A stretch of 64,000 nucleotides of DNA from an uncultured Myxococcales bacterium (GTDB taxonomy: Bacteria; Myxococcota_A; Polyangia; JAAYKL01). Location: the NCBI GenBank assembly GCA_964530995.1, contig CAZHCG010000001.1:14942-78941 (forward strand). The letters are read 5' to 3'. The notes under the pieces are model-generated. The model was not told the DNA's origin, did no database searches, and was given only the letters and a program-made list of their open reading frames with translations. A program made the translations under genes and the position numbers. Of the stretch, positions 8,976 through 45,980 are shown piece by piece (the stretch's first letter is position 1; every line of letters starts with the position of its first letter).

Positions 8976-10064
8976 ATGCAGCTTCACCAGTCCACCGTGC
9001 TGATGATGCTCACCTACCTCGGCGTCGAGGCCGAGGAGGGTGAGGATCTCGACTCCACGCTCGACGAGTCGCTCGCCGAGTACAACCTCGACCGGGACCA
9101 GTTCCTCACGCGGGAGACCTGCTTCTCGCTGGGGTACCACCGCGGCCTGGCCGGGCGCCCCTTCTCCGACGAGCAGGCGCCGCAGGGCGACGACGGCCCC
9201 GACAAGGAGCTCATGGAGCTCATCGAGGACGGCTACGCCTACGGCCTGGAGGCACGGGACCTGCGCCTGTCGCCGCCGCCCAGCCTGGTGCTGACCGCCC
9301 ACGACGCCAACGAGCTCGAGGCCGGGATGCTGGCCAAGTGGGCCGAGGAGCTCGACCTCTCCGAGGGTCAGCGCCTGGCGCACGCCATCAACATCGGCAG
9401 CGGCAAGTCCGCCGTCACCGTCCCCGCCGGCACCCCGGTGGACGTCCTCGGTGAGGCCGAGAAGGACGGCGTCCCGCACACCATCGTGCTGTTCGACGGG
9501 TCGGCGCTCCTGGTCCCCAACCCCGAGGACGCCTCCAACATCGTCTCCGCGGACACGGCCGTTGCCCCGGAGAAGAAGACCCGCAAGGGCAAGAAGAAGA
9601 GCGGCGGCGCCAAGCGCGAGCGCGGTCCGACCCTCAAGCAGGGCATCATCAAGGTCATCGAGGGCGGCGACGGCGGCCCCGGCCCCCTGCAGACCAACGG
9701 GCAGTTCGCCAGCCGCGTCAAGGCCGTGTGCCGCGAGATGGGCATCGGCGACAAGGCCGGCAAGTTCGTCCAGCAGGCGGACCGGCACGTGCCCTACTAC
9801 CTCAACTGCTACCGCCCGACCAAGCAGGGTGAGCCCGGCCGCCTCGGCGTCGAGCAGCCGTTGGCCTGGGTGGTCGCCGCCACCGTGGCCCGCAAGTACT
9901 ACCTGCGCGCCGACGGCTCCCACGAGGAGCGGATGAAGGCCATCCCCGCCGACCTCATGTCCCAGATGGAGGACCGCGAGGCGCGGGTGGAGACCACCGC
10001 CCCGGCCCCGGCCGAGCCCAAGAAGAAGAGCAAGGACGACGCCAAGGACAAGTCCAAGGAGTAG
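8976..10064 (+). CDS. hypothetical protein with a basic linker
   Basis: Ribosome-binding site AAGAAAGGAAC; the upstream part of ORF 8913..10064 is unlikely to be coding. Confidence 0.55.
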   Translation: MQLHQSTVLMMLTYLGVEAEEGEDLDSTLDESLAEYNLDRDQFLTRETCFSLGYHRGLAGRPFSDEQAPQGDDGPDKELMELIEDGYAYGLEARDLRLSPPPSLVLTAHDANELEAGMLAKWAEELDLSEGQRLAHAINIGSGKSAVTVPAGTPVDVLGEAEKDGVPHTIVLFDGSALLVPNPEDASNIVSADTAVAPEKKTRKGKKKSGGAKRERGPTLKQGIIKVIEGGDGGPGPLQTNGQFASRVKAVCREMGIGDKAGKFVQQADRHVPYYLNCYRPTKQGEPGRLGVEQPLAWVVAATVARKYYLRADGSHEERMKAIPADLMSQMEDREARVETTAPAPAEPKKKSKDDAKDKSKE

Positions 10065-12478: not shown

Positions 12479-14329
12479 ATGCCGAGAAACTACGGGGAGC
12501 CAAGACTTGCGCTCGATGAGATCAAGCGCAGGATTGGCGAGAGTGAGAACCTGACCGCGCTGGGAGCCTGCGTCTTCGCGGGCGGCTTCAGCTTCGGGAT
12601 GGAGGAGGCCGGCTTCGACGTCGTCGGCCACCTGGAACTGCCGGACCTGGACGTCGGAGCTGGGACCGCCAGCCAGCGATGGCCAGTGGCTGTGGCGCCG
12701 CTCGACGACGCGTACGAGCACAAGAACCGGCACGGCAACCACACGACGTGGATGAACGCCGTGGACGAGCTGCTCGAGGAGGAGCTCGTGCCCGACGTCC
12801 TCCACATGAACCCGCCCTACTCGGCGTTCGCGCAGACCGGACTGCAGCGCGGGCTGTCCGATCCGGTCATGTGCTACCTGGAGTACTGCGTGCACCGCCT
12901 GGCGCTTCGGCTGAAGCCCAAGGTGTTCGTCTGGGAGCTCGTGCCCGGCATCTGGGACCGCGAGCCGCAGTTCATCAACTCGATGGCAGCTGCCGCCGCG
13001 GAGCATGGGTACAGGACCTACTCGTTCCTGACCACCGCCGCGCTTCACGGCGGGTTCCAGAACCGCAACCGCTTCCACTTCATCGCCAGCAAGTACGCGC
13101 TGGACTTCGAGGGAGTGTACGAGAGGGAGCCCGCCGACCGCAAGGCCTGCCGGACGCTGGGCGACGTGCTCCAGATCGTGGACGACGCTCAGGCGGAGTT
13201 GGGACGGCTCCCGAACCACGAGGCGGACTACCAGTCCACCGGCGCACTGGACGCCATCCTTCCGTTCGTGCCGCCTGGCGGGTACCTCGGAGACGTGCCT
13301 GACCCCGTGCTCTACGAGCACTACAGGCCGAACGGTCAGCCGTGGAAGGGCACCGGTCGCCCCGGCGCGACGCGCGTGCGTGGGCGCATGGACCGCACCT
13401 GTCCGGTCATCATCGGCGGCGCCAGCATCGTCCACCCGGAGAAGGACCGCTGGCTGACCGTCAGGGAGTGCGCCGCGGCGCAGGGATTCCCGATGGACTA
13501 CGAGTTCCCCAACGGTGGCAACGGCTACGCCGAGGTCGGCAAGGGCCTCTGCACGCACAACGCCGCCTTCGTGGGACGGGTCATCTGGGATGCCCTGGCG
13601 AACAAGACGGACGCCGAGCCCAACGTCGTCGCTGAGCTGATCGACTGGCGCAAGCGCACCAGCGTGCCGAAGATGACGCCGAGCATCGAAGAGCGCCGGG
13701 CGTGGTTCAAGGAGAAGCACCCCGACCTTCCCATCGAGTACGCCGAACGCAAGAAGAGCGCCAAGAAGGGCGGCAAGAAGCGCTCTCGCAAGCAGGCCAC
13801 GTGCATCGCAGTCCCAGCGTACGACGGCGGCGAGAAGAGCGCGCGTGTCATGCGCATGCTGCGGCTCTGCGGCATCACGGCGATCGTCCCGCCGGACAAC
13901 GACCCCGCCGGCCGAGTGGCCGCGTTCCAGGGCAGCTCGCTGGCGCTCCTCATCGCGGAGGACCAGGCGGCCGCCTTCCAGGCGTTCATGGACGTCGGCA
14001 CGGCGCTGGGAGCCAGCAAGCCGGTCCTGACGATGTTCCCCGACGGAGTGCCCACTCCGCCCGGAGTGACCCCCATCCCGGACGAGGCTGACGCCGCGTT
14101 CGTGGTCAAGTCCATCGTGGAGAGGTCCGGAATGAACGTCGCTGACGTGGTCCAAGCGGTCATCAACCGCCTGGCCGGAGACGCCGCGTCCCTCACCACC
14201 ATCCTTAACATCGCCCTGGAGATGATCCCGGACGACGACTACGGAGAGGACGAGGTCAGCGAGGAAGACCTCGAGGACGAGGACGAGGAGAACCAGGACG
14301 CCTACGAGGTCACCGACGACGAGGACTAG
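12479..14329 (+). CDS. paralogous C5-methyltransferase-fold protein with motif IV NPPY (Cys replaced by Tyr) and a long acidic C-terminal extension
   Basis: VFAGGFSFGMEEAGF; HMNPPYSAF; WELVPGI; canonical QxRxR as FQNRNRFHFIAS; collinear with the 11178..12410 product through the target-recognition region (YEHYRPNGQPWKGTGRPG…GLCTHNAAF). Confidence 0.8.
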   Translation: MPRNYGEPRLALDEIKRRIGESENLTALGACVFAGGFSFGMEEAGFDVVGHLELPDLDVGAGTASQRWPVAVAPLDDAYEHKNRHGNHTTWMNAVDELLEEELVPDVLHMNPPYSAFAQTGLQRGLSDPVMCYLEYCVHRLALRLKPKVFVWELVPGIWDREPQFINSMAAAAAEHGYRTYSFLTTAALHGGFQNRNRFHFIASKYALDFEGVYEREPADRKACRTLGDVLQIVDDAQAELGRLPNHEADYQSTGALDAILPFVPPGGYLGDVPDPVLYEHYRPNGQPWKGTGRPGATRVRGRMDRTCPVIIGGASIVHPEKDRWLTVRECAAAQGFPMDYEFPNGGNGYAEVGKGLCTHNAAFVGRVIWDALANKTDAEPNVVAELIDWRKRTSVPKMTPSIEERRAWFKEKHPDLPIEYAERKKSAKKGGKKRSRKQATCIAVPAYDGGEKSARVMRMLRLCGITAIVPPDNDPAGRVAAFQGSSLALLIAEDQAAAFQAFMDVGTALGASKPVLTMFPDGVPTPPGVTPIPDEADAAFVVKSIVERSGMNVADVVQAVINRLAGDAASLTTILNIALEMIPDDDYGEDEVSEEDLEDEDEENQDAYEVTDDED

Positions 14330-24469: not shown

Positions 24470-25387
24470 ATGGGATCACAGAAGATGATGGCATGCATCA
24501 GGACTGGGCGCGTCTTCGCCGCAGACCAGGTGCCGGACGACACCGACGGGCTGATGCTCATGCCCGTGGAGGAGGCCGAGCCGTACTACGAGCAGTGGAC
24601 TCGCTCGGCGGCCATTCCGCATGAGCGCACGGACGATGGAAGATTCGACCGCTCCCATCTGTCCACCGAGCACGCGTACCGACTCGGTCGCGATTACTTC
24701 GCGCACTGCCTGAGGTACGGGTGGCCGATGACGCTGGTGCGCCAGCACGTCGGCCCCGGCGGCCGCATCATGGACGTGGGATGCGGCAAGGAGATCCCGT
24801 TCTTCAGGGCCCTGACGTGCGACCACTCCGCCGTGACCTACTACAAGCCGGCGTTGTACGTCGCGGCTGACCTGAACGACATCAAGTACCGGCCTCGCAT
24901 CACCGGGTGCGAGACCCACATCCTCGACCACTGCAACGCCGTTGAGGACCTGAGTCGAGTCCCGAACGAGCCGTTCGACCTCGTGGTATCCTTCGAGGTG
25001 CTCGAGCACATGGACAAGGACGACGGCCTGAGGTTTCTCGAGGCGCTGGTGGGATTCGCTCGGCGCAAGCCTGAACGAGAAGGCAAGCCCGCGATCATCG
25101 CCCTGTCCACCCCGGTCAACGGCGGCACCATCGCCAAGAACCACATCTACGAGTGGGGCCGCTCCGAGCTGCGCCGCGCGTGGTGGAAGCTCGGCTGCGA
25201 CGTCGTGCAGGAGTACGGCACCTTCGCCAACCTGCGCGACATCACTCGAATGCTTACCAGCACCGAACTCGAGGTGTGGAACTCACTCGTGGACTACCAC
25301 AGCCCGCACACCCTGACGAGCATCTTCGCCACCAAGCATCCCGAAGCCGCCAGGAACATCGCCTGGCACGTCGAGGTGAGGCCGTGA
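24470..25387 (+). CDS. class I SAM-dependent methyltransferase
   Basis: Motif I RIMDVGCGKE; post-I FDLVVSFEVLEHM. Confidence 0.8.
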   Translation: MGSQKMMACIRTGRVFAADQVPDDTDGLMLMPVEEAEPYYEQWTRSAAIPHERTDDGRFDRSHLSTEHAYRLGRDYFAHCLRYGWPMTLVRQHVGPGGRIMDVGCGKEIPFFRALTCDHSAVTYYKPALYVAADLNDIKYRPRITGCETHILDHCNAVEDLSRVPNEPFDLVVSFEVLEHMDKDDGLRFLEALVGFARRKPEREGKPAIIALSTPVNGGTIAKNHIYEWGRSELRRAWWKLGCDVVQEYGTFANLRDITRMLTSTELEVWNSLVDYHSPHTLTSIFATKHPEAARNIAWHVEVRP

Positions 25388-26262
25388 TCATAGTGCTCGA
25401 GGGCGCAGATGGCGTGGGAAAGACCACCCTCGCCGACGCCATCGAGTCTCTGAATCCCGGCAACACGGTGAGATTCAACCATGGCCCGCCTCCAGACGGC
25501 GAGTCCGCGGCGATGCACTACGAGGAGTCCATACGCGACCTCGTCAGAGCCTCTGACGCTGGAACGGTAGTCGTGTGCGACAGGCTACACGTGGGTGAGC
25601 TGGTGTATGGCGCGGTGGTGCGAGACGATCCAGGCATCACCGTAGGCGAGGCATGCGTGTTCGACCTGACGCTGGAAGGCGCCGGCGCCTTGTTAGTTCA
25701 TTGCTCCGTGCCCAAGGCCGTCGCATTTCAGCGCATGATCGGTCGTGACGGCGGCAAGCCCGACGAGAAGAGCGGCGCGAAGACGTCTCACTGGCGCGCG
25801 TTGGCCGCCGGCTTTCGGCGCTACACCGGCGGAGTACTCACCGGGCACTGGCGCGACGCAGACCTGACGGGATACCCCCTTCAGGCCGCCACTGAACTGT
25901 CCATCGAGGCGCGCATGCGCCATCGGTTCGGGCCACCGGTCCCGAAGTTCCAGCTGGCTCTGCCCGACCCAGAGCCAGGCATCAGCAACACGTCGTGGAT
26001 CTGCCACCAGATGCGAATTCTTGGACTGCACCGTCAGTTCGAGTTTGCGACACCTGGCCACGTTAGAAACAATGTCCCAATCATCGCGTTGGGTGACGCC
26101 AGCGCGTGGCTGGACGTCGCTGCCATCGCCTACGAACGCCGAGTCCCCCACCGCGAAGACGAAGAGGACTATGACGAAGAGTCGGCGTGGCGCAGTGAGG
26201 TCTTTGACGCCGTGAAATGCGTGAAACGAGAGATGGGCCATGAAGAAAGGTGCACCAGATGA
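25384..26262 (+). CDS. P-loop nucleotide or nucleoside-monophosphate kinase
   Basis: GTGA overlap start; P-loop VLEGADGVGKTTLA. Confidence 0.65.
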   Translation: MIIVLEGADGVGKTTLADAIESLNPGNTVRFNHGPPPDGESAAMHYEESIRDLVRASDAGTVVVCDRLHVGELVYGAVVRDDPGITVGEACVFDLTLEGAGALLVHCSVPKAVAFQRMIGRDGGKPDEKSGAKTSHWRALAAGFRRYTGGVLTGHWRDADLTGYPLQAATELSIEARMRHRFGPPVPKFQLALPDPEPGISNTSWICHQMRILGLHRQFEFATPGHVRNNVPIIALGDASAWLDVAAIAYERRVPHREDEEDYDEESAWRSEVFDAVKCVKREMGHEERCTR

Positions 26263-26540
26263 AGTTCGATCTCAGCGTGATCGAGGAGATGCACGAGGCG
26301 CATCAGGCGACGTTCAAGCGCCTGTGCGACAAGGCGGAGCTGGAGGTCAAGAAGACCTCGGTGACCTTCTCGGAGGAGCAGATCAAGAAGGCGTCGGAGG
26401 ACCCGGGGTTCGCCAAGGGGTTCCCGATGTTCGCGGCGGCCTACGGGAAGGCCTCCAAGAGCTCGAAGAAGCCCGACAAGAAGTCCTCCAGCGACAAGTC
26501 CGTCAAGAAGGACAAGACCGAGGACAAGCCGCAGGACTAG
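26259..26540 (+). CDS. hypothetical K-rich small protein
   Basis: GAAAGG ribosome-binding site, then ATG; C-terminal KKPDKKSSSDKSVKKDK. Confidence 0.4.
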   Translation: MKFDLSVIEEMHEAHQATFKRLCDKAELEVKKTSVTFSEEQIKKASEDPGFAKGFPMFAAAYGKASKSSKKPDKKSSSDKSVKKDKTEDKPQD

Positions 26541-26626
26541 TCGGCGAGTTCGCCACAGGCGACGACCTCTGCAGGGCCGCACTGCGGTTCTGCCTAGCAC
26601 AGGAGTCTGAGGCCGCCCCGAGAGGC

Positions 26627-27559
26627 ATGGCGGTCAAGGAGTCGCTGCTCCCATCCGTCATGGTCCTGAAGGACGTGCACAGGCCGTTCTTCCTGTCACC
26701 GACGCGCAAGGCCAACTACCGATTCGGCCTGGCAGAGGCCTGCTGGATTCTCAGCGGCTCCGACGACGCCCAGCTCATCGGCAAGTTCAACAAGAACATG
26801 CTGAAGTTCAGCGACGACGGCAAGACGCTGTGGGGCGCCTACGGCCCGAGGCTCATGGGTCAAATGCCCCACGTCCTGAACAGCCTCAGGCGGGACGGGC
26901 ACAGCAGGCAGGCGGTGAGCTGCCCGTGGAGACCGCAGGTTGGGCCACTCGAGCTGTATGGCATGGACATCGACTGGCGTGGAGACCACAGAGACAGTCT
27001 CGGACTCACACTCGACCCCAACAATCAAAATGCCGAGTGGGACGGCGACTCCTGGCGCTCGAAGGACATCCCGTGCACGATCTTCATGCACTTCCAGATG
27101 CGCGATGGTAAGCTGTGCATGACGGCGTACATGAGGTCCAACGACGCGTACCTCGGCGTGCCGTACGACATCCTATCGTTCACCACCGTGCAGCGGGCCA
27201 TCGCGTCCGCCCTCGGCGCGGAGCCCGGGTGGTACTGCCACGTGGCGAGCAACCTGCACCTATACGAGCGCAACTTCGAGGACGCGGAGCGCGCCCTGAA
27301 AGACACCAGCGGCGTGGACAATCAGGTCGAACTTCCGCCCATGGGACGGGCGCTTTACGGAACGCTAGCGCCGCAGATCTCTCGTGTCTTCGAAGACATC
27401 TTCGATGAGACCCTGGGCGCGTGTGAGCACCACGTCGACTGGATCAAGCCATTCGTCGCAGCCATGCACCGCCGTCCTGACGTGTGGGACGGATGGCCGA
27501 GGCTGCTGCGTGCGACAGGGCGAAAGCCCCGCGTGGTGGCTACGAGCACAATCACGTGA
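26627..27559 (+). CDS. thymidylate-synthase-family pyrimidine C5 hydroxymethylase/methylase with Asn-to-Asp substitution at the ThyA Asn177 position, which in ThyA-family enzymes determines substrate pyrimidine (dCMP-type)
   Basis: GAGAGG ribosome-binding site; SRQAVSCPWRP; catalytic IPCTIFMHFQ; RSNDAYLGVPYDILSF aligns with ThyA RSCDVFLGLPFNIASY, placing D where ThyA has N. Confidence 0.75.
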   Translation: MAVKESLLPSVMVLKDVHRPFFLSPTRKANYRFGLAEACWILSGSDDAQLIGKFNKNMLKFSDDGKTLWGAYGPRLMGQMPHVLNSLRRDGHSRQAVSCPWRPQVGPLELYGMDIDWRGDHRDSLGLTLDPNNQNAEWDGDSWRSKDIPCTIFMHFQMRDGKLCMTAYMRSNDAYLGVPYDILSFTTVQRAIASALGAEPGWYCHVASNLHLYERNFEDAERALKDTSGVDNQVELPPMGRALYGTLAPQISRVFEDIFDETLGACEHHVDWIKPFVAAMHRRPDVWDGWPRLLRATGRKPRVVATSTIT

Positions 27560-30702: not shown

Positions 30703-31154
30703 GGCTTGTTGTCCTCGGAATCGGCGAGTGGGCGGCACGGGCTCATCCCGGACTGGTGACTGACCGCGACCTAGAGCGGGTGCGTGAGTCCAACAATGTG
30801 CTGTTGGCCACCGCGCGTCGCCTGTTGGTGATCGCTCAACGCGCTGGAATGCCAAAGTCCGAGGTCGAATCGTTGATCAGTTCGGCGAAGCCGTCGCCAG
30901 CGGTAGGCCTGATGCAGGCCAAGGGCCAGCAGGACGATGGCTCGAAGGTCACGGGACGATTCTCGCAGATGGAGGCGATAGCCGCCGTGGACGCGGCCCT
31001 GGCGCACCCCAGGACGGCTCAGAGAGTGCCCGCGTGGTTCAAGCACGACTGGTGGCCCGGCGTCCTGAGGCGCGTGGCGTCCGGCGAGTGCATGTCCGAT
31101 CGTGAGGTGGACGTCGCGGTTTACGTGGCCGCGGATGCGACGGAGGAGAGATGA
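30672..31154 (+). CDS. hypothetical protein
   Basis: ATG at 30672 overlaps the previous gene by 31 nt; its stop overlaps the next ATG. Confidence 0.45.
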   Translation: MASGQDIPDLRLVVLGIGEWAARAHPGLVTDRDLERVRESNNVLLATARRLLVIAQRAGMPKSEVESLISSAKPSPAVGLMQAKGQQDDGSKVTGRFSQMEAIAAVDAALAHPRTAQRVPAWFKHDWWPGVLRRVASGECMSDREVDVAVYVAADATEER

Positions 31155-31627
31155 GGCCCAATTGGCCCGAGTACTTCATGTGGCTTGCCGTTGTGGCAGC
31201 CACTCGCTCTACATGCAGCCGGCTCAAGGTTGGGTGCGTGATCGTCGACCGAGAGGGGTACGTCAAGTCCACCGGGTACAACGGCAGCGCTCCCGGAGCG
31301 TCGCATGACCCGCTTCTGCACGACGGGCGCAACGTCAGGACCATACACGCTGAGGCCAACGCTGTGGCGCACGCGCACTGTGACCTGAGGGGAAGCACGG
31401 CGTACGTCACGACGTTCCCTTGCCGAGAGTGCATCAAGCTGCTCGGCGCAGCCGGAGTCAAGAGCATCGTCTGGCTAGAGGCCTACGCGTCGGAGGACAA
31501 CACGATCACCGCCAAGCTGGCCATGGACGCCGGCGTCAGCATGAAGAAGTTCGAAGGGAGAGAGCCGTGGAGCGAGGACGTCTCATCGTGGTTGAAGGCA
31601 TCGACGGAAGCGGAAAGAGCACGCTGA
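31151..31627 (+). CDS. dCMP deaminase
   Basis: Zinc motifs HAEANAV and PCRECIKLL; GGAGGAGAG ribosome-binding site. Confidence 0.85.
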   Translation: MRPNWPEYFMWLAVVAATRSTCSRLKVGCVIVDREGYVKSTGYNGSAPGASHDPLLHDGRNVRTIHAEANAVAHAHCDLRGSTAYVTTFPCRECIKLLGAAGVKSIVWLEAYASEDNTITAKLAMDAGVSMKKFEGREPWSEDVSSWLKASTEAERAR

Positions 31628-32190
31628 GCAAGTCGTTAGCCCGAGCCATCGGCGCTACGTGCGTTCGTGAGCCCGGGGACACGGAGTTCGGTGAGAACAT
31701 CCGCGAAGGGGTCCTCATGAAGATGTCAGCCGAGGCTCGTCCCGGCGCCGCTGCCATGACGATGCTGTACGCAGCCGCTCGTGCGGAGCTGTTCCAGACC
31801 GTCGTTGGCCCGGAGCTCGACGCCGGACGCGACGTCGTGTCCGACCGGTCGTACATCAGCAGCCTGGCGTACAATGCCGACGAAAGCTGGAGCCGAGATG
31901 ACGTCATGAACATCAACGCCAAGCTCATGACTCGATTCAACTGCTGGCCTGACGTCATACTCATCATGGACCTGAACGAGCGCGTGGCCATGGACCGTAT
32001 CACGATGGAACGATCTGTGGGTGCGTACGAGGCCGACGGGCTGGAGGCGTTCCGCCGGCGACGCGAGTTCTACTACCTGACGGCGAGGCACTACGCCGGG
32101 ATGGACTCGCACGTCCATGTCGTCGACGCCACGCGCCCCAAGGACGAGGTCCTGGCAAACGTCGTGGGCCTGATTACATCTGGCAGATGA
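31567..32190 (+). CDS. tmk: thymidylate kinase
   Basis: GTG after GAAGGGAGAG; P-loop IVVEGIDGSGKST; DRSYISSLAY; lid region. Confidence 0.8.
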   Translation: MERGRLIVVEGIDGSGKSTLSKSLARAIGATCVREPGDTEFGENIREGVLMKMSAEARPGAAAMTMLYAAARAELFQTVVGPELDAGRDVVSDRSYISSLAYNADESWSRDDVMNINAKLMTRFNCWPDVILIMDLNERVAMDRITMERSVGAYEADGLEAFRRRREFYYLTARHYAGMDSHVHVVDATRPKDEVLANVVGLITSGR

Positions 32191-33019: not shown

Positions 33020-33405
33020 TGCTCATCAACGATAGGACGTCCATCGACACCAGAGCCACGCACGTAGTGTTCCAGCCCGGCGACCTGACGAACTACGAGT
33101 TCCTGGTGATACCGATCGCCGGGCTTCCCGTACCCGGTACGCGTGGGTTGAAGTACGCACAGGTTGTGATGCTGAGCTGCGGTGAAGCCCACCACCAGTT
33201 CAAGTGCGGTCCCGACGCCGAGCCCCTGTCCGTGGACTACGTTGGCAGCAAGCTCAACCTTCGTGGCCCCAGCGCCGTGGCGATGACCGTGGCGCTGTGT
33301 CGAGAGCTCGATCGTGAGCCGCACGGCGTCATGGAGGACTGGATGGACGACGAGCCACACATCGAGAAGTACCGAGCCGCGTGGGAATCGTGGCAGAACG
33401 AATGA
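33019..33405 (+). CDS. hypothetical protein
   Basis: TGATG overlap with the previous gene. Confidence 0.5.
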   Translation: MLINDRTSIDTRATHVVFQPGDLTNYEFLVIPIAGLPVPGTRGLKYAQVVMLSCGEAHHQFKCGPDAEPLSVDYVGSKLNLRGPSAVAMTVALCRELDREPHGVMEDWMDDEPHIEKYRAAWESWQNE

Positions 33406-33425
33406 ACTTGATAGGAGGTCAAGAG

Positions 33426-34529
33426 ATGGGAGACCTGATCACACTGGAGGAGTTCGCCGAGCACATCGGGCACCAGCCCGTGCCGCGCGACCTCTCCGTC
33501 ACGGACGAGCGATTCGCGCTCGTTGGAACCGGACCCAGCCTGGAGGTGCAGTTCGCCGGAATGCCGGCCGGCCCGCTGCCCATGTACCAGGCGAAGTCCA
33601 TGGCCGGCGCCTCGAACATCGACCTGCGGGGGACCACCAACCACCTGCGAACCGCCAGATCCGCCAAGGCGGACGATGAGCGATACAGGGTGGCGCGCGC
33701 CACCCTGGCACGCCAAGTCAACGAGTTGAACTCGGCCATCGATGCGGCGGGGCGCGACGAGCGGTCTCCCATGATCGCTCGCATCTCGGCGGGTGACGAT
33801 GGGCGCGAGTACGTGGGTGGCCTGGTCTCCAAGGACTACGCGCCGCTCACGCACGTACAGCTCGTCGAGACCATGCTCGAGACGCCTGGCCTCGTCGACG
33901 CGCGCGTCCATCGCATGCGAGTGACCGCCGCCCGCATGGAGGCCACGCTGATGTTCAACAACAGCGAATGGAAGGTCGACGGTGGCGTCAAGGCCGGCAT
34001 TCGCATTGGCAACGGGCAGTTCGGCGACAAGGCGTTCAGCCTCGTGGCCATGCTCTTCCGACTGCTGTGCACGAACGGCATGATGGACGTCCTCGACTCT
34101 GCCACCGTGTTCAAGAGGCATGTCGGCATGGCGATCCAGCTCGAGACGAGCTTGAAGACCGTCCTGGAGAGGGCCGATGGCATGTTCCTCGACTCCACCC
34201 AGGCGATGAACGAGGAGGTCGACGTGATCGAGGGCCTAGTGGAGCTCTACCGACACGGGCTGCTCAACCGTGGGGCGTTCAAGAAGACGCTCGTGCGACG
34301 CGACGAGACCGTCGGCGGTCGGCAGGTCGAGGGCGCGACCACCACGCTGTGGGGTCTGTCCCAAGCGGTCACCGCGGCCGCGCGCGACTATGGGTTCACG
34401 CAGATGAACTCGATGGGCGTGCTCGCCGGCCGGCTGGTGCACGAGGGCATCGACGGGGTGATCTCCGGGCGCCGCGAGGTCAACGACGACCATGAGGAGA
34501 TCCTGGAAGAGTTGGGGATCGCCGCGTGA
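33426..34529 (+). CDS. hypothetical protein
   Basis: AGGAGG ribosome-binding site 7 nt before the ATG at 33426. Confidence 0.55.
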   Translation: MGDLITLEEFAEHIGHQPVPRDLSVTDERFALVGTGPSLEVQFAGMPAGPLPMYQAKSMAGASNIDLRGTTNHLRTARSAKADDERYRVARATLARQVNELNSAIDAAGRDERSPMIARISAGDDGREYVGGLVSKDYAPLTHVQLVETMLETPGLVDARVHRMRVTAARMEATLMFNNSEWKVDGGVKAGIRIGNGQFGDKAFSLVAMLFRLLCTNGMMDVLDSATVFKRHVGMAIQLETSLKTVLERADGMFLDSTQAMNEEVDVIEGLVELYRHGLLNRGAFKKTLVRRDETVGGRQVEGATTTLWGLSQAVTAAARDYGFTQMNSMGVLAGRLVHEGIDGVISGRREVNDDHEEILEELGIAA

Positions 34530-34539
34530 TCGAAGCACT

Positions 34540-34678
34540 TTTCTGGGGCCTACGACAGGGGGTCCGATCTGGGGGCATCCATCCCTACTAGACCACCCTG
34601 TCGATGGCCCCAGAAATGAACTGAAGGGGACAGAAACAAAAAACGCCCACCCCCTGGGCTCCCCTCCGGAGGGGTAAT
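34540..34678 (+). other. structured intergenic region with a nested inverted repeat and a 14-bp perfect palindrome; possible terminator, regulatory site or origin-like element
   Basis: Outer arms TTTCTGGGGCC (34540-50) and GGCCCCAGAAA (34606-16); inner arms CGACAGGGGGTC (34553-34564) and GACCACCCTGTCG (34591-34603); A-rich ACAGAAACAAAAAACG; palindrome CCCCTCCGGAGGGG at 34661-74. Confidence 0.4.
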
Positions 34679-34693
34679 GACTGGTGATTGACT

Positions 34694-37300
34694 ATGGCAC
34701 GAGCGTTCCATACCGATGACCGAACGTTCTCAAACTTCCAGCCGGCAGAACTGGTGAAGCTGTGCGGTGTGCCGATGGGTCGATGGCCACTGTACGTGAT
34801 GAAGGAGCTGCTCGACAACGCCACCGCGGCGCTGGAGGAGTTCGGGATCGATAACCCGATGGTGACGATCACCGTCAAACAGAACGAGCTGGTTGTCAGC
34901 GAAAACGGTCCCGGCATCACAGACGAGGCGCTGGATCACATCCTCGACTTCACCAAGTTCGGCGGGTCGAACCGACACCACAAGCTGCCTACCCGCGGGG
35001 CTCAGGGCAACGCTCTGATGACAATCGTCGGCATCGCTACGACGTGGGGTGGCCAGGTGGTGGTACAGCGTCCGTGTGGGCCGTCCATAGCTCTGGAGGT
35101 GACGCTCGACACGGTGAGGCAGTCTGTGGACGTAGAGCGACGAGAAGTGGGTCGCCCAGGCAGGTCATCTGTCAGCGTAACGCTTCCGGAGCTGCCATGG
35201 AAGCGTGGTGGGGCTGACCTCGATGAGATAGTCGAGCTGGTGAAGGTGTTCACTTGGTTCAATCCGCACGTGACATTCATGGTCAAGGACAAGCGCGACG
35301 GCATATCGATGGACTCGGTGCCGCGCGAGGACGGCGCCAAGCCGGCGCTGCCAGGCGGGTACGACTGCGGGCACGTCCAGTGGTTCACCACAGACGAGTT
35401 CGCCGACCGACTCGCCGCGGACGTGCGCGCCAGACCGGACACGGACCTCGGCGCCTGGATGTCCGAGTTCCTGAAGTCGAAGCAGCACCCACACAAGGGA
35501 GTGTCGATCGGCGACATGGTCAGCGACGATCGCACATCTCTGGTGAAGTTCGCCAGCGGCATCAAATCCAAGGTGGCCGACGCCAGCCAAAGCCCGAACG
35601 TGCAGTTCACGCCCATCGGGCGCAACCGGCTGGGTGACGCGCTGGAGGAGATGGGTGGAGACAAGAACTCGTACCTGGAGTATCACACCGTTCGTGGCAC
35701 GTTCAGCTGTGAGGCCGGGCACCAGGTGCCGTTCCTGGTAGAAGCCGCGCTGCTGCAGATGCCAGAAGGCGTGAGGCGCGCGCCGACCCCCGTGTTCTCG
35801 ATGAACCGCACCGTCATGTACGGATCTCCATCGTTCGATTCAATCGAATGGCGCGAGAAGGTGCGAGGCCCGTGGCACACGGCGCGCAGAGCCGAGCTCA
35901 GCTACCTCGCCAGGGCGTACCAGATCGACGTCGGGAAGACTCCCGCAGCCCTCATCGTCCACGTGACTTGTCCCAGCCCGGGATACTCCGGCTATGGCAA
36001 GCAATCGTTCGATACCACATGGCTCGCGGAACCACTCAGCGAGTGTCTCGAGAGGGTTACACTCGCCGCCAGGAAGGAGCGAGCCGGCGAAGCGCGCAGG
36101 CGCCGTGAGGCGCAGGCACCGCGTGAGAAGATCCGCACCGTGCTATTTCGCATCCTCCCCGAGATCATCGACACCAACACCGAGGGCGGACGGCTGCCGA
36201 TCATGATTCGACAGCTCTACTACGCCACCCGAGGCGTGTGGGCCGCGCACCACCACAAGCCGCTGCAGTACGGCACGTTCTGCGCGTACGTCGACCTCTA
36301 CGAACAGGCCATCGGACGCATGGTCTGCTACCGAGACCCGCGCGGCACGCTCATCGAGCCACATTCCGGCCGCGAACTAAGGCTCGGAACTGACGCCGTC
36401 AACAGGTACAATCCGAAGAAGTGGGAGGGGCACACGATTATCTTCGTCGAGAAGGAGGGCTTTGCTCACGCACTGAAGGCGTACAAAGTGACGAAGAGGT
36501 GGGACGCCATCGTCGTCGGGTCCAAGGGGTTTGCCGTCGAGTCCTGCAGGGAGGTACTGCAGAAGTACCGAAAGTTGCTCGGTGACATGGTGAAGATCAT
36601 CTGCCTGCACGACGCAGACCCCGCCGGCTACATGATCGGATACGACCTCGCCACCAACCTGCCAAGGTTCGGCGACAACGTGGACGTGCAGGTCATCGAC
36701 GTCGGGCTCACGATGGAGGACGCCTGGCAGATGGACCTGCAGGACGAGCCATTCGACCTCAAGAAGACGGTGTGGTCCATGGTTCGAAATATGCGCAAGC
36801 ACATGATCCGTGACCCCAACGGAATGAGGCGACCGCTGCTCGAGCCGCGCGCATGGGACATGTTCATGCCGAACATGTACCGCGACGACACGTACCCCCA
36901 CTGGGCGAACCGCCCGCAGGGGCGTAGGGTCGAATTGAACGCCATGCCTCCGCGGGTATTCATAGACTGGCTAGAAGAGCACCTCGAGGCCAATGAATGC
37001 CGCAAGGTGCGACCTCCCGATGACATTGTGGACGACAAACTCCGCTCTGCGCGCGAGAATGCCGTTCGCAACGAGGTGGGGCAGTTCCTCATGAAGATGA
37101 TGGGAGAGGACGCCGTCTTCGAAGTCATGAAGGAGCTCGGCGTGCCGGCGTACGACCTCGACAGCGTGCTCGAGGGCAGGCCGGAACAACACTGGGAGTA
37201 CCTAGTGAAGCGCGCCGGCGAGACTGGCGCAGACTTCAACGCAGCGGTGGAACGGGCGATGAGGCGTAAGTTCCCTGGCATGTTTGCGGGTGCGGAGTGA
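34694..37300 (+). CDS. single-chain type IIB topoisomerase-like protein (Topo VIII-like): Topo VI-B-type GHKL ATPase N-terminus fused to a Spo11/Topo VI-A-type winged-helix (YY) and TOPRIM C-terminus
   Basis: Bergerat-fold motifs ELLDNATAALEE (N box), ENGPGITDE (G1), GGSNRHHKLPTRGAQGNALMT (G2); winged-helix catalytic motif MIRQLYYATRG; TOPRIM IIFVEKEGFAHAL…VVGSKGFAV…ICLHDADPAGYMIGYDL. Confidence 0.75.
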   Translation: MARAFHTDDRTFSNFQPAELVKLCGVPMGRWPLYVMKELLDNATAALEEFGIDNPMVTITVKQNELVVSENGPGITDEALDHILDFTKFGGSNRHHKLPTRGAQGNALMTIVGIATTWGGQVVVQRPCGPSIALEVTLDTVRQSVDVERREVGRPGRSSVSVTLPELPWKRGGADLDEIVELVKVFTWFNPHVTFMVKDKRDGISMDSVPREDGAKPALPGGYDCGHVQWFTTDEFADRLAADVRARPDTDLGAWMSEFLKSKQHPHKGVSIGDMVSDDRTSLVKFASGIKSKVADASQSPNVQFTPIGRNRLGDALEEMGGDKNSYLEYHTVRGTFSCEAGHQVPFLVEAALLQMPEGVRRAPTPVFSMNRTVMYGSPSFDSIEWREKVRGPWHTARRAELSYLARAYQIDVGKTPAALIVHVTCPSPGYSGYGKQSFDTTWLAEPLSECLERVTLAARKERAGEARRRREAQAPREKIRTVLFRILPEIIDTNTEGGRLPIMIRQLYYATRGVWAAHHHKPLQYGTFCAYVDLYEQAIGRMVCYRDPRGTLIEPHSGRELRLGTDAVNRYNPKKWEGHTIIFVEKEGFAHALKAYKVTKRWDAIVVGSKGFAVESCREVLQKYRKLLGDMVKIICLHDADPAGYMIGYDLATNLPRFGDNVDVQVIDVGLTMEDAWQMDLQDEPFDLKKTVWSMVRNMRKHMIRDPNGMRRPLLEPRAWDMFMPNMYRDDTYPHWANRPQGRRVELNAMPPRVFIDWLEEHLEANECRKVRPPDDIVDDKLRSARENAVRNEVGQFLMKMMGEDAVFEVMKELGVPAYDLDSVLEGRPEQHWEYLVKRAGETGADFNAAVERAMRRKFPGMFAGAE

Positions 37301-37334
37301 TTCGACTGACAAAAGTGGACTGAGTGGAGGCAAC

Positions 37335-39020
37335 GTGGTAGAGGTGGGCAGTGACGGTGGGCACCCGGACTGGCAGAGTCTGGTACCGGAGGTGACCCTG
37401 AGGCCGCAGCAGAACGAAGCATTGCCGATGCTGTGGGAGGCCCTGTATGGAAGCGAAGCGGTTGACTTTGCGACACTCGAGGCCCCGACCGGAGTCGGCA
37501 AGAGCGTCATACTGCTCGCACTGGCGAGGTGGGTCGAACGCGAGGGAGGCCGAGCGTTCCTGGTGACGCCACAGAGGGTCCTTCAGGACCAACTGGCAGT
37601 GTGGGATGGCGTCGCCGTCATGAAGGGAAAGGGCTCATACTCGTGCAACATCGCCCCAACCACCGCGGCATCAGCGCCATGCGCCCTGAACGCCAAGGTC
37701 AGGGAGGGGCACGAAGAGTGCAGCGACAAGCTCTGCCCTTACTTCAGGGCCCTGGCCAAGGCCAAGGCGACGCCGATCGTCATTCACAATTACGCCAGCC
37801 TCATGGCTCAGTCCCACATTGGCGGCCACTTCGGACCGCGGGACCTGATGTGTCTGGACGAGGCGCACACCGCCGCATCCTGGGTGCGAAACTACATGTC
37901 GTGCGAGTTCACACTCAGCGACCTGCGCGCCATGACGGCCAAGGACCCGCCACAAGACCCGGACCTGTTCATGCCTTGGCTGAGGCTGCTCATCGGCAGG
38001 CTTGGCGACGAAATACCGAACAACTTCCCGGAGCGTGTGATCGCGCACTTGCTGAAGATCAGGGCCCACTCGGCGGCATTCGGCGTCCCGAACGTCAACG
38101 AGATGGAGGGGCAGCACGGAGACGAAATGCGCGACCTCGATCCCGAGGACCGCGTGCCGTTCGAGGCGTGGGCCATGGATCGGCTGGGAGAGTCGTGTGC
38201 CCTCGTGCCATGGGCCACGATACGCCACAACGTCGATACCGACGACGAGGAGAGCTGGGAGGTCCTGCCGCTACGAATCGCCCCACTGTCAACGGCGCTC
38301 ACCGGACTCGGCGGCAAGATCGTCATGACCACGGCCACCGTCCTGTCGCCCAAGCTGCTGGCGGCGGAGGCCGGCGTCTCGAACCACAACATCAAGAGCA
38401 TCATCATCGATTCCGCGTTCCACCCGGACTCAAGGCCGGTGTACAGACGATACGTAGGCAAGATGTCGTATGCGCACAAGAAGCGAACGCTTCCGCGCAT
38501 GATCGACGAACTGGTGGAGATCGCCGCCGAGCACAACCACGAGCAGGGGCTCGTCCATACGGTGAGCCATGCCCTCGCGTGGCAAGTATCCGATCGCCTG
38601 AGAAAGCGACTCAGAGGACGTCCCGTAGTTCAACTGCCGCGCGGGTCGGATCGAGACGTTGTCATCAAGGACTTCCTGTCAGGTACGTTTGGACCGACCG
38701 CAATACTGATCGGCCCAGGCCTGATGGAGGGCGTCGACGGCGTGGGCGACAGCTGCCGGTGGCAGGCCATGTGCAAGGCGCCGTGGCCACACCGCAAGGA
38801 CCCCGTCGTCTGTCACCTCATGGACAACAAGGACCCAAAAATCCGCCGTTGGGGCGACACCTGGTACGTATGGAAGACCGCTCAGCTTACCGTTCAAGGC
38901 ATCGGTCGCGTTTGCCGATCGAACGACGACCATGGTGTCACGTACCTGCTCGACAGCGGATTCAAGCGCATCCTCACGTCTGGCTTCGTGCCGGACTACG
39001 TCATCGACGCCGTATCCTGA
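37335..39020 (+). CDS. DinG/XPD(Rad3)-family DEAH helicase with a 4-Cys iron-sulfur domain
   Basis: Q-motif RPQQ; Walker A APTGVGKS; Fe-S cysteines YSCN…CALN…CSDKLCPYF; DEAH box CLDEAH. Start uncertain among TTG 37284, GTG 37290, GTG 37335 and GTG 37344; 37335 chosen because a GGAGG element ends 5 nt upstream. Confidence 0.75.
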   Translation: MVEVGSDGGHPDWQSLVPEVTLRPQQNEALPMLWEALYGSEAVDFATLEAPTGVGKSVILLALARWVEREGGRAFLVTPQRVLQDQLAVWDGVAVMKGKGSYSCNIAPTTAASAPCALNAKVREGHEECSDKLCPYFRALAKAKATPIVIHNYASLMAQSHIGGHFGPRDLMCLDEAHTAASWVRNYMSCEFTLSDLRAMTAKDPPQDPDLFMPWLRLLIGRLGDEIPNNFPERVIAHLLKIRAHSAAFGVPNVNEMEGQHGDEMRDLDPEDRVPFEAWAMDRLGESCALVPWATIRHNVDTDDEESWEVLPLRIAPLSTALTGLGGKIVMTTATVLSPKLLAAEAGVSNHNIKSIIIDSAFHPDSRPVYRRYVGKMSYAHKKRTLPRMIDELVEIAAEHNHEQGLVHTVSHALAWQVSDRLRKRLRGRPVVQLPRGSDRDVVIKDFLSGTFGPTAILIGPGLMEGVDGVGDSCRWQAMCKAPWPHRKDPVVCHLMDNKDPKIRRWGDTWYVWKTAQLTVQGIGRVCRSNDDHGVTYLLDSGFKRILTSGFVPDYVIDAVS

Positions 39021-45626: not shown

Positions 45627-45980
45627 ATGGCATCGTTCCAGTCACCATGCGACCAGAACCTAGCCCTACGGGATGCAGACCCATACTGGGTGTTGGATCA
45701 CTACCAATCTCCCTGCGACGCGGTGGTGGCGGACCCAGACCCGTGGTGGATCATCTCATTCGGAAGCGTCGCGGCCTCAGACGACGACTCGGCCGTGTTG
45801 GACGTGTCGCTCTGGGACTGGACGGAAATTGTTACCGGATTCAGCCAGATCGTCAGCGCTGACATCATGGTCCTCGACGTATCCATATGGAACGGCACTG
45901 ACGTGATGACGACGTGGAATCAAGAAACTAGCACCAATGATGAGATCGGCGACGACATCACCGTGGAGAATCCTTTCTGA
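45627..45980 (+). CDS. hypothetical protein
   Basis: Compact ORF between two structural genes. Confidence 0.45.
   Translation: MASFQSPCDQNLALRDADPYWVLDHYQSPCDAVVADPDPWWIISFGSVAASDDDSAVLDVSLWDWTEIVTGFSQIVSADIMVLDVSIWNGTDVMTTWNQETSTNDEIGDDITVENPF

Follow-up and report, generated by a model that had tools for sequence, protein, structure and literature searches.

An uncultured tailed-phage lineage encodes a single-chain topoisomerase of the Topo VIII family

The 868-aa protein described here adds a new member to the known Topo VIII family of topoisomerases (GxxGxA group), in a viral setting that was previously unreported. From a 64 kb stretch of DNA (the window), part of a phage genome of at least 100 kb, we established the protein's domain organization, the conservation of its motifs, its fold and its family, along with its phage setting and the structure of its clade. 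The gene is conserved in a lineage of ∼90–108 kb uncultured tailed phages, and its product probably acts by ATP-driven strand passage as the phage's relaxing and decatenating enzyme, where we infer the enzymatic activity, dimerization, ATP dependence, strand passage and role.

The open reading frame is real and fits the 870-aa product of the original prediction, except that its start codon is ambiguous (Table 1); an identical 868-aa protein is held in public data (P0001). A GHKL ATPase domain, an H2TH-like region, a transducer, a 5Y-CAP region and a TOPRIM domain follow one another in one polypeptide. In the predicted model, which is of the monomer, the long helix of the transducer continues straight into the CAP helices; the Tyr-TOPRIM geometry itself would form across the dimer.

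Table 1. Positions in the window of the Topo VIII gene, its encoded domains and motifs, the upstream spacer elements and the downstream helicase (residues of the Topo VIII protein numbered from the ATG).
Feature	Position	Strand	Basis or remark
Long inverted repeat, 21-nt arms, 35-nt spacer	34540-34616		fold and tile scans
Short GC hairpin, terminator-like on minus strand	34645-34659		
Palindrome CCCCTCCGGAGGGG, overlapping SD-like GGAGGGG	34662-34675		
Topo VIII gene, 868 aa	34694 (ATG)-37300	+	alternatively TTG start at 34688, giving 870 aa
GHKL/Bergerat ATPase domain, ~residues 25-200	34766-35293	+	Pfam, motifs, profile search
N-box ELLDNA, residues 38-43	34805-34822	+	motif scan
G1 box ENGPG, residues 70-74	34901-34915	+	motif scan
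G2 box PTRGAQGNA, GxxGxA type (GAQGNA = 102-107)	34988-35014	+	motif scan
H2TH-like helical region, ~residues 225-322	35366-35659	+	model secondary structure; Topo VI-B profile alignment
Transducer domain and long connecting helix, ~residues 325-475	35666-36118	+	alignment, profile search, model
K436 of invariant G435-K436, putative switch lysine	35999-36001	+	aligns with Topo VI-B
5Y-CAP-like winged-helix region, ~residues 480-575	36131-36418	+	alignment, motifs, model
RQLYYATR, residues 506-513	36209-36232	+	motif scan
Predicted catalytic Tyr510, Arg513 at +3	36221-36223 (Tyr510)	+	alignment
Topo VI-A-type TOPRIM, ~residues 580-752	36431-36949	+	Pfam, profile search, motifs
TOPRIM E586, within VEKEG 585-589	36449-36451 (E586)	+	motif scan
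TOPRIM DADPAG, residues 640-645	36611-36628	+	motif scan
T2BI box RVELNAM, residues 745-751	36926-36946	+	motif scan
C-terminal helical extension, residues 753-868	36950-37297	+	59-sequence alignment, model
Rad3/XPD/DinG-like SF2 helicase, 561 aa	37335-39020	+	gene caller, Pfam, PHROG
Helicase Walker A GVGKS, residue 53	37491-37505	+	
Helicase four-Cys putative Fe-S region	37644-37736	+	
Helicase DEAH, residue 175	37857-37868	+	

Motif scans recovered both halves of the enzyme as they had been proposed from the letters of the DNA: the complete GHKL N-terminus (ELLDNA, ENGPG and GAQGNA), and the RQLYY motif followed by a Topo VI-A-type TOPRIM domain (RQLYYATR, VEKEG and DADPAG). The Pfam models HATPase_c (31.8 bits, gathering cutoff 26.4) and TOP6A-Spo11_Toprim (31.6 bits, gathering cutoff 24.1) both matched above their cutoffs. 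Positions invariant in an alignment of 59 sequences include E38, G74, G102, G105, A107, K436, Y510, R513, E586, D640, D642, G645, R745 and E747, as well as K771, P774 and W834 of the C-terminal extension. The pair G435-K436 sits in the “aGK” column of the S. shibatae and M. mazei Topo VI-B sequences in the profile alignment, a column that we take to mark the switch lysine. Every catalytic motif is kept in 38 clade members with a mean identity of 57%, the T2BI box following the pattern R[VIFTM]E[LI]N[AS][MIL]. The acidic residue of the G1 box is Glu70 in the window protein and glutamate in 10 of the 38 clade members, whereas it is aspartate in the rest of the clade and in the other family members examined, including the GxxGxA Topo VIII enzymes. 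Glu70 aligns with Asp61 of the P. polymyxa enzyme, in which the D61A substitution abolished ATP-dependent relaxation.

All motifs in the Topo VIII list of Takahashi et al. 2019 (PMC7671362), which together with Gadelle et al. 2014 (PMC4117785) is the reference for Topo VIII, are present in the window protein. The catalytic motif of the family is RxxY/FY with a Topo VIII-specific arginine three residues past the tyrosine, and the T2BI box reads RVELNAM in Topo VIII, R/KxExxA/S in Topo VI and xWELDAL in Mini-A (PMC7671362). The G2 box of Topo VIII is GxxGxG or GxxGxA, and some members of the family are split. The single-chain B-A fusion (Topo VIII) of the original prediction is correct; the window protein has the RVELNAM box, the arginine at +3, a switch lysine and the GxxGxA box. 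Searches with tblastn matched the Topo VIII proteins of H. jeotgali (96% coverage, 2e-40), P. polymyxa pPPM1a, P. amygdali pMPPla107 and Pseudomonas Leaf58, and BLASTP alignments were collinear with the P. polymyxa (E = 2e-50) and H. jeotgali (3e-50) enzymes. In a profile search against the PDB, the N-terminal half matched Topo VI-B (6.6e-24) from the Bergerat fold through the transducer, including the switch-lysine column, and the C-terminal half matched Topo VI-A (9e-9). In the comparisons between families, Topo VI-B outscored MutL, MORC and histidine kinases for the N-terminal half, as did Topo VI-A the DnaG, MksG and OLD-like TOPRIM domains for the C-terminal half. We therefore rejected both a MORC, MutL or histidine-kinase identity for the N-terminal half and an OLD, DnaG or JetD/MksG-type TOPRIM nuclease identity for the C-terminal half. 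A nuclease of defense, anti-defense or conflict that combines GHKL and TOPRIM modules in the manner of MORC, OLD, Gabija or Wadjet JetD/MksG is already disfavored and very improbable; the suggested use in host takeover or anti-defense found no direct support, and PADLOC returned no match for the Topo VIII protein.

About 38 homologs with 51–64% identity form an isolated monophyletic clade (bootstrap support 100/100) on syntenic phage contigs of 50–108 kb, with no sequences bridging it to other Topo VIII proteins. The window protein shares only ∼25% identity with any Topo VIII known before or found outside phages, whereas those are ∼41% identical among themselves. The depth, monophyly and isolation of the clade imply long vertical inheritance in phages. 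This pattern, together with an open reading frame that stays intact at full length, with wholly invariant catalytic residues, across 38 or more diverged sequences from phages, effectively refutes the idea that the gene is a decaying, non-functional passenger from a plasmid, even though reviews describe many Topo VIII genes in various states of inactivation (PMC7614492).

Topo VIII is a rare family that the literature describes as confined to free or integrated plasmids, a trait that the window and related contigs do not share, as they are tailed-phage genomes. Plasmid carriage is a published trait of distribution and has no bearing on molecular membership; the phage setting is the novel aspect. 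The source is an uncultured tailed phage of ∼100 kb that encodes a replication module of its own and to which no cultured phage is closely related, and the window carries genes for a terminase, tape measure protein, endolysin, PolA, primase and ligase. We detected no integrase or partition gene on the window or related contigs, and a scan of 55 window ORFs revealed no second topoisomerase. The original claim that no phage Topo VIII had been reported is consistent with the searchable literature up to 2024–2026, with INPHARED, which gave no Topo VIII match, and with BFVD, in which there was no full-length analog and matches were partial (TM ≤ 0.28). In IMG/VR, distantly related Topo VIII genes of other contigs adjoin capsid, portal or terminase genes, and the present clade is therefore not the sole viral occurrence.

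The 164-nt spacer upstream of the gene contains an inverted repeat, single-copy in the window, with 19 of 21 arm positions paired, confirming the unusual structured non-coding region noted there earlier. Its fold z-score is −3.6, no inverted repeat in a sample of 40 tiles from across the window is stronger, and no Rfam family matched it.

In the mechanism that we propose, ATP binding would close the two GHKL domains around the transported duplex, and the transducer, with switch Lys436, would pass the signal on to the 5Y-CAP/TOPRIM half. In both protomers, Tyr510 would then cut the gate duplex, assisted by Mg2+ on Glu586, Asp640 and Asp642, and the second duplex would go through before the break is resealed. 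As the phage's own relaxing and decatenating enzyme, the protein would serve a largely autonomous replisome (the phage encodes a primase-MCM-like helicase, PolA, FEN, ligase and RNR) and may untangle replicated genomes ahead of packaging.

Alternatively, the protein could be mainly a maker of double-strand breaks, Spo11-like or A. degensii-like, that might degrade or linearize host DNA, start recombination-dependent replication or process phage concatemers. The A. degensii enzyme, the only characterized GxxGxA-type Topo VIII, cleaved DNA without relaxing it (PMC4117785), the G1 box has Glu70 in place of Asp, and a PD-(D/E)XK nuclease and a 5′-3′ exonuclease encoded in the window could process such breaks. 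However, the authors of that study read the cleavage as a trapped cleavable complex or decay, the T2BI box capping the catalytic tyrosine is intact, and the ATPase, transducer and switch-lysine apparatus is strictly kept over 38 diverged sequences, which is hard to square with an ATP-independent nuclease. We consider this reading unlikely and favor strand passage.

The neighboring gene was correctly described as a DinG/XPD-type DEAH helicase with a four-cysteine cluster. Its start in the gene caller is a GTG at 37335 preceded by GGAGG, and its product matches Helicase_C_2 (2e-18), ResIII and DEAD in Pfam and PHROG 2488 “DNA helicase” (4e-76); NCBIfam DinG, YoaA and Rad3 matches are all under their cutoffs, and the best PDB sequence matches are XPD and DinG (∼3e-4). 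Four cysteines between Walker A and Walker B (C104, C116, C129 and C134), which may bind a 4Fe-4S cluster, are invariant in five orthologs with ∼50% identity. All eight clade loci (8/8) have the helicase gene downstream of Topo VIII, at a distance of 35 nt to ∼1.5 kb and in the same orientation, and the two IMG/VR contigs with this helicase subfamily are precisely those with the clade Topo VIII, as would be expected if both proteins formed a dedicated machine, a functional analog of RecQ-Topo III or reverse gyrase. Nevertheless, the entire replication module is syntenic in the clade phages, so the adjacency says little, and zero to two unrelated small ORFs, varying by phage, separate the two genes. 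At 97 other Topo VIII loci, no such helicase occurs within 6–10 kb, and 495 INPHARED phages carry homologous helicases but no Topo VIII. The proposed topoisomerase-helicase pairing thus holds as conserved synteny within the phage clade but not as a general module, and a dedicated machine appears quite improbable; the helicase is better seen as a replication or repair gene inherited along with the rest of the module than as an established partner of Topo VIII. A viral replication role as the ancestral, or at least a recurrent, function of Topo VIII is likewise doubtful. In that reading, the phage clade and the capsid-, portal- and terminase-linked IMG/VR genes would represent the full-length type IIB topoisomerase “missing” from viruses, and in the clade phages it would act with the co-inherited Fe-S helicase as a dedicated machine that unlinks a genome of possibly modified DNA. 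If true, such an enzyme would connect Mini-A of viruses, Topo VIII of plasmids and Topo VI of cells.

Among known enzymes, the type IIA topoisomerase of T4-type phages (gp39/gp52/gp60) is a three-gate enzyme with a non-homologous DNA-cleavage core. The viral Top6A-like Mini-A proteins (Takahashi et al. 2019) share virus encoding, the 5Y-CAP and the Topo VI-A-type TOPRIM with the window protein, and PHROG 6247 “DNA topoisomerase” (303 positions) matches the TOPRIM region weakly. A Mini-A identity was rejected, as Mini-A has ∼300 aa, no ATPase or transducer and an xWELDAL box, whereas the 868-aa protein has a GHKL domain, a transducer and RVELNAM. Archaeal Topo VI (Top6A2-Top6B2; PDB 2zbk, 2q2e, 1d3y, 9o0g) consists of separate subunits with 15–20% identity to the window protein; a Topo VI identity was rejected because of the fused chain and the Topo VIII form of the T2BI box. 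A Pfam scan of the 868-aa protein gave no match to TP6A_N (N-terminal 5Y-CAP part), and the NCBIfam equivalog models for Topo VI-A and Topo VI-B gave 24–40 bits, far under their cutoffs of 274–1310.

The three Topo VIII enzymes tested were all weak in vitro (PMC4117785; PMC7614492), and the P. polymyxa pPPM1a enzyme (GxxGxG group) is the sole Topo VIII with demonstrated ATP-dependent relaxation and decatenation. It is collinear with the window protein over residues 8–795 at 26% identity with all catalytic residues aligned, but it is plasmid-borne, has 751 aa, lacks most of the C-terminal helical extension and carries GALGNG in place of GAQGNA. The H. jeotgali plasmid 5 Topo VIII (GxxGxA group) is likewise a single-chain B-A fusion of ∼870 aa with identical domain order, and it aligns end to end, with the N, G1 and G2 boxes, the switch lysine, RxxYY with Arg at +3, E...DxDxxG and RVELNAM in common. 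The window protein differs from the GxxGxA Topo VIII enzymes in being encoded by a large tailed phage rather than by plasmids or integrated elements, and the context of the switch lysine is G/S-Y-G-K-Q in the phage clade compared to D-R/K-G-K-T/S in those enzymes.

Topo VIII has been defined by a type IIB architecture in which the B and A parts are fused or, occasionally, split, by N, G1 and G2 ATPase boxes (the G2 box reading GxxGxG or GxxGxA), by a switch lysine in the transducer, by an RxxY/FY motif with an extra Arg at +3 from the catalytic Tyr, and by the TOPRIM residues E...DxDxxG, and its T2BI box (RVELNAM) discriminates it from Topo VI (R/KxExxA/S) and from viral Mini-A (xWELDAL) (PMC7671362; PMC4117785). 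The window protein carries every one of these features, with a G2 box of the GxxGxA type (GAQGNA). A motif scan located all of the motifs quoted in the original prediction, and the predicted 870-aa reading frame, which begins at a TTG codon, is uninterrupted. Public assemblies contain an identical 868-aa protein, encoded by contigs 80 and 100.7 kb long. Two Pfam domains pass their curated thresholds, HATPase_c with 31.8 bits against a cutoff of 26.4 and TOP6A-Spo11_Toprim with 31.6 bits against 24.1, and sub-threshold NCBIfam matches relate the N-terminal half to Topo VI-B and the C-terminal half to Topo VI-A.

Coordinates of the Topo VIII gene, its motifs (residues numbered from the ATG) and the flanking features
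Feature	Position	Strand	Details
Topo VIII ORF	34688 (TTG) or 34694 (ATG)-37300	+	870 or 868 aa; uninterrupted
ELLDNA	residues 38-43		
ENGPG	residues 70-74		
PTRGAQGNA	residues 99-107		
RQLYYATR	residues 506-513		
VEKEG	residues 585-589		
DADPAG	residues 640-645		
SF2 helicase	37335 (GTG)-39020	+	561 aa; gene caller; start behind GGAGG
Inverted repeat	34540-34616		21-nt arms; in 164-nt spacer upstream of Topo VIII; fold z-score -3.6

BLASTP alignments with the P. polymyxa and H. jeotgali enzymes are collinear from the N-terminal strap to past the T2BI box (2e-50 and 3e-50, respectively), and tblastn against plasmids matched the H. jeotgali plasmid 5 enzyme with 96% coverage (2e-40) and recovered the other reference enzymes, those of P. 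polymyxa pPPM1a, P. amygdali pMPPla107 and Pseudomonas Leaf58. Because phmmer with the single sequence returned only marginal histidine-kinase matches from the PDB, a family profile was needed for this comparison. The resulting 59-sequence profile matched Topo VI-B at 6.6e-24 over the Bergerat fold, H2TH and transducer, with the invariant G435-K436 on the "GK" switch-lysine column of Topo VI-B; MutL (5e-11), GyrB (1e-5) and MORC (7e-4) gave weaker matches, and Topo VI-A was matched at 9e-9. The 16 best Foldseek matches in the PDB are Topo VI-B throughout. Neither the profile nor Foldseek placed the N-terminus in a non-topoisomerase GHKL group or the C-terminus among OLD/DnaG TOPRIM proteins, the alternatives named in the original prediction, and motifs, profiles and alignments together bear out the fused Topo VI-B/Topo VI-A enzyme that it proposed. 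The window protein truly belongs to Topo VIII; it adds a member to a known family and is not a new kind of enzyme.

A word-indexed search recovered 38 further proteins of 835–896 aa with 51–64% identity to the window protein, as well as about 40 more of the same length and domain content at 23–30% identity. Wherever genomic context was retrieved for the 51–64% group, the gene lies on a phage contig of 50–108 kb, and these contigs are syntenic, with the gene order methyltransferase, ThyA, PolA, dCMP deaminase, dTMP kinase, Topo VIII, helicase and a ~740-aa protein; two of the contigs are IMG/VR genomes (91.9 and 107.8 kb). Three independent metagenome assemblies of related phage (L003, L004 and L013) measure 107.7–107.8 kb and start at different points, which suggests that these genomes are complete and circularly permuted. 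The annotated start of one homolog, P0033, lies ~30 codons too late.

In a neighbor-joining tree the 38 sequences form one clade on a long branch (100/100 bootstraps), with 57% identity within the clade and ~25% to everything else, compared with 41% among the non-phage sequences. The tree was midpoint-rooted, so the root of the clade is not placeable, and the grouping of the clade with H. jeotgali may reflect long-branch attraction. When 1.84 billion cluster representatives were scanned exhaustively with HMMER (276 at E≤1e-30), the top of the ranking consisted of a single full-length sequence (1182 bits) and three short fragments, after which the next full-length match drops to 242 bits and 33% identity. 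Relatives number 223 in 185,579 species-representative genomes; the 80 listed, at 21–33% identity, come from Planctomycetota, Desulfosporosinus/Dehalobacter, Alphaproteobacteria and others, and include no member of the phage clade. Of three distant homologs examined, two adjoin AAA_25 replication ATPases and have integrases or a primase in the vicinity, and the third has no mobile-element marker nearby; these integrated-element or unclassified contexts are broadly consistent with the published picture of Topo VIII. The window Topo VIII defines a deep, isolated, phage-borne clade, in all members of which every catalytic motif is kept.

The G1-box acidic residue contacts adenine in GHKL ATPases and is Asp in other GHKL enzymes. 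It is Glu70 (34901-34903) in the window protein and Glu in 10 of the 38 clade members, and Asp in the remaining members and in every non-phage Topo VIII of the motif table. Glu70 aligns with D61 of the P. polymyxa Topo VIII, in which the D61A substitution abolished ATP-dependent relaxation (PMC4117785).

The window, about 62% GC, comes from a tailed-phage genome and encodes a large terminase, a tape-measure protein and an endolysin. It also carries genes for a primase joined to a helicase domain of the MCM type, a family-A DNA polymerase, a 5′-3′ exonuclease, a PD-(D/E)XK nuclease, an SNF2-like helicase and an NAD-dependent ligase. A scan of 55 ORFs of the 64-kb window turned up no integrase, no partition protein and no second topoisomerase. 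The primase fusion, a 955-aa protein at 5966-8833 with a DnaG-type Toprim_2 primase domain and a P-loop helicase domain of MCM type (Pfam MCM, 5e-8), is unusual for a bacteriophage. Nucleotide metabolism is represented by ribonucleotide reductase, ThyA, dCMP deaminase, dTMP kinase and a dUTPase-like enzyme (dUTPase_2/MazG-like), and DNA modification by two C5-cytosine methyltransferases and a GT4 glycosyltransferase that also matches the Pfam "GT4-conflict" family. The window is dense in such nucleotide and modification genes, which were placed at 12479-14329, 24470-27559 and 31151-32190, coordinates that do not take in the GT4 gene and the second methyltransferase. By analogy with T4, which has modified DNA and brings its own type II topoisomerase, the DNA of the window phage may be modified. 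The phage has no close cultured relative: neither the Topo VIII protein (tblastn) nor a 15-kb window segment (megablast) found a match in 50,697 INPHARED records, and the best identity to any isolate is ≤28% for the terminase and ≤26% for the polymerase.

By homology, the window Topo VIII should be a two-gate type IIB enzyme that works as a homodimer. A duplex would be captured as ATP drives dimerization of the GHKL domains; the transducer, with K436, would link this step to cleavage of the gate duplex by Tyr510 and Mg2+ (E586/D640/D642), with strand passage and resealing to follow. Since the phage has its own replisome and no other topoisomerase is visible in 64 kb of a genome some 35–40 kb longer, the enzyme would naturally serve to relax DNA ahead of forks and to decatenate or unknot it before packaging. 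From the sole GxxGxA Topo VIII tested, that of A. degensii, only DNA cleavage was seen, and activity was weak for every Topo VIII enzyme assayed (PMC4117785). A role in host takeover or anti-defence, also raised in the original prediction, found no support, and a defence-system reading was rejected, as PADLOC finds no match for Topo VIII.

Directly after the topoisomerase lies the DinG/XPD-type DEAH helicase with four Cys that had been predicted there, and its motifs, domains and position were confirmed. It matches Helicase_C_2, ResIII, DEAD and PHROG 2488 (4e-76), carries a Walker A motif (GVGKS) and a DEAH box with Cys 104, 116, 129 and 134 between them, and has XPD and DinG as its closest solved relatives; the four Cys are invariant in five orthologs (~50% identity). 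A Rad3/XPD-like helicase follows on the same strand in all eight clade loci, with 0–2 unrelated small ORFs intervening. The suggested topoisomerase-helicase module therefore stands as an adjacency within the clade but not as a general arrangement: no such helicase occurs within 6–10 kb of other Topo VIII genes (0/97 loci), and the 495 INPHARED phages with full-length homologous helicases, including Ackermannviridae, Halorubrum tailed viruses and jumbo phages, have no Topo VIII. A helicase-side IMG/VR scan returned only the two contigs already carrying the clade's Topo VIII and thus provides no independent test of the pairing. Synteny extends over the whole replication module, so the most likely reason for the adjacency is that both genes were inherited together as parts of it; a functional partnership is possible but unsupported. 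Despite its location in the replication module, the helicase matches the PADLOC profile "typeIV_DinG" (type IV-A CRISPR-associated) at 5.5e-50, and matches of this kind probably lead to false defence-system calls among phage Rad3/XPD-like helicases.

The structured non-coding region noted upstream of the topoisomerase is real and unusual for this genome: its inverted repeat is single-copy and the strongest in a sample of 40 tiles from the window. Two short GC hairpins lie 3′ of the repeat (spacer region 34540-34675), one a perfect 14-nt palindrome overlapping an SD-like GGAGGGG and the other reading as a minus-strand terminator, with nearby genes all on the plus strand. Rfam contains no family for the spacer, giving only a chance miRNA match (E = 0.86). 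The hairpin was rejected as a conserved companion of Topo VIII, being different in sequence in phage of the L003/L004 type and absent from three other related contigs (L002, L005 and L014); its likeliest role is that of a terminator, attenuator or RNA-stability element between operons. Directly upstream of Topo VIII in two divergent relatives is the motif CCTACCCCTACGGAAT (L002, ~9955-9975; L003, ~9845-9865). Its single window copy, with two mismatches, lies at 45659-45674, upstream of a 663-aa ORF at 45980, and is not above chance, so the motif was dropped as a promoter candidate. The gene directly upstream of Topo VIII (33381-34529) encodes a protein of 367–382 aa that hits PHROG 1362, a family of unknown function (1.5e-12), and more weakly DUF932. 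Not all clade members have it: L005 carries a 390-aa ORF, but L002 and L003 lack the gene, which hence forms no conserved unit with Topo VIII.

Viral Topo VIII is not unique to the clade of the window. A distant Topo VIII (24–33% identity) is encoded on 11 more IMG/VR contigs, several with the gene split into two ORFs. On contigs of 10–27 kb, a major capsid protein (L015/L017), a portal (L020) or a large terminase (L022 and L024) lies within ~6 kb of a distant Topo VIII (24–29% identity), and the pooled 6-kb neighborhoods also contain small terminases, a prohead protease and four integrases. Topo VIII is thus also present in smaller phage-like elements that are probably temperate. At L016, L019, L020, L021 and L024 the Topo VIII region reads as two adjacent ORFs of roughly 410–520 aa each, and these virus-classified loci look like the split two-subunit forms of Takahashi et al. 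Among viral structures in BFVD, the window protein has no full-length analog, the best matches being type IIA topoisomerases and rIIA (TM≤0.28). PHROGs holds one 303-position TOPRIM-region family that matches it weakly and is probably Mini-A.

No report of a phage Topo VIII was found in PMC or bioRxiv through 2026, in agreement, as are INPHARED and BFVD, with the original statement that such fusions are not known as a phage replication component; a December 2024 review still lists Topo VIII as plasmid-borne and Mini-A as viral. The plasmid-exclusive view is outdated by the data, though not by the literature searched. The mechanism of the window enzyme is as expected; its viral association is unpublished yet visible in public metagenomic catalogues. 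Reviewers have doubted a real in vivo role for Topo VIII, as the plasmid and integrated copies tested were weak or decaying. The phage lineage provides a setting in which Topo VIII is clearly under selection, and for this reason its better-conserved enzymes are attractive for the first robust biochemistry and structure of a single-chain type IIB topoisomerase. In the published partition, repeated through 2024 reviews, Topo VI is cellular, Topo VIII is confined to plasmids and integrated elements, and viruses have only Mini-A, which lacks the ATPase; evolutionary scenarios of how type IIB enzymes and Spo11 arose rest upon this division. A complete Topo VIII whose catalytic residues are all conserved among the large tailed phages of one lineage breaks this partition, as do the further IMG/VR viral genes, providing evidence that full-length type IIB topoisomerases belong to the viral gene pool and correcting a repeated generalization that underlies these evolutionary models.
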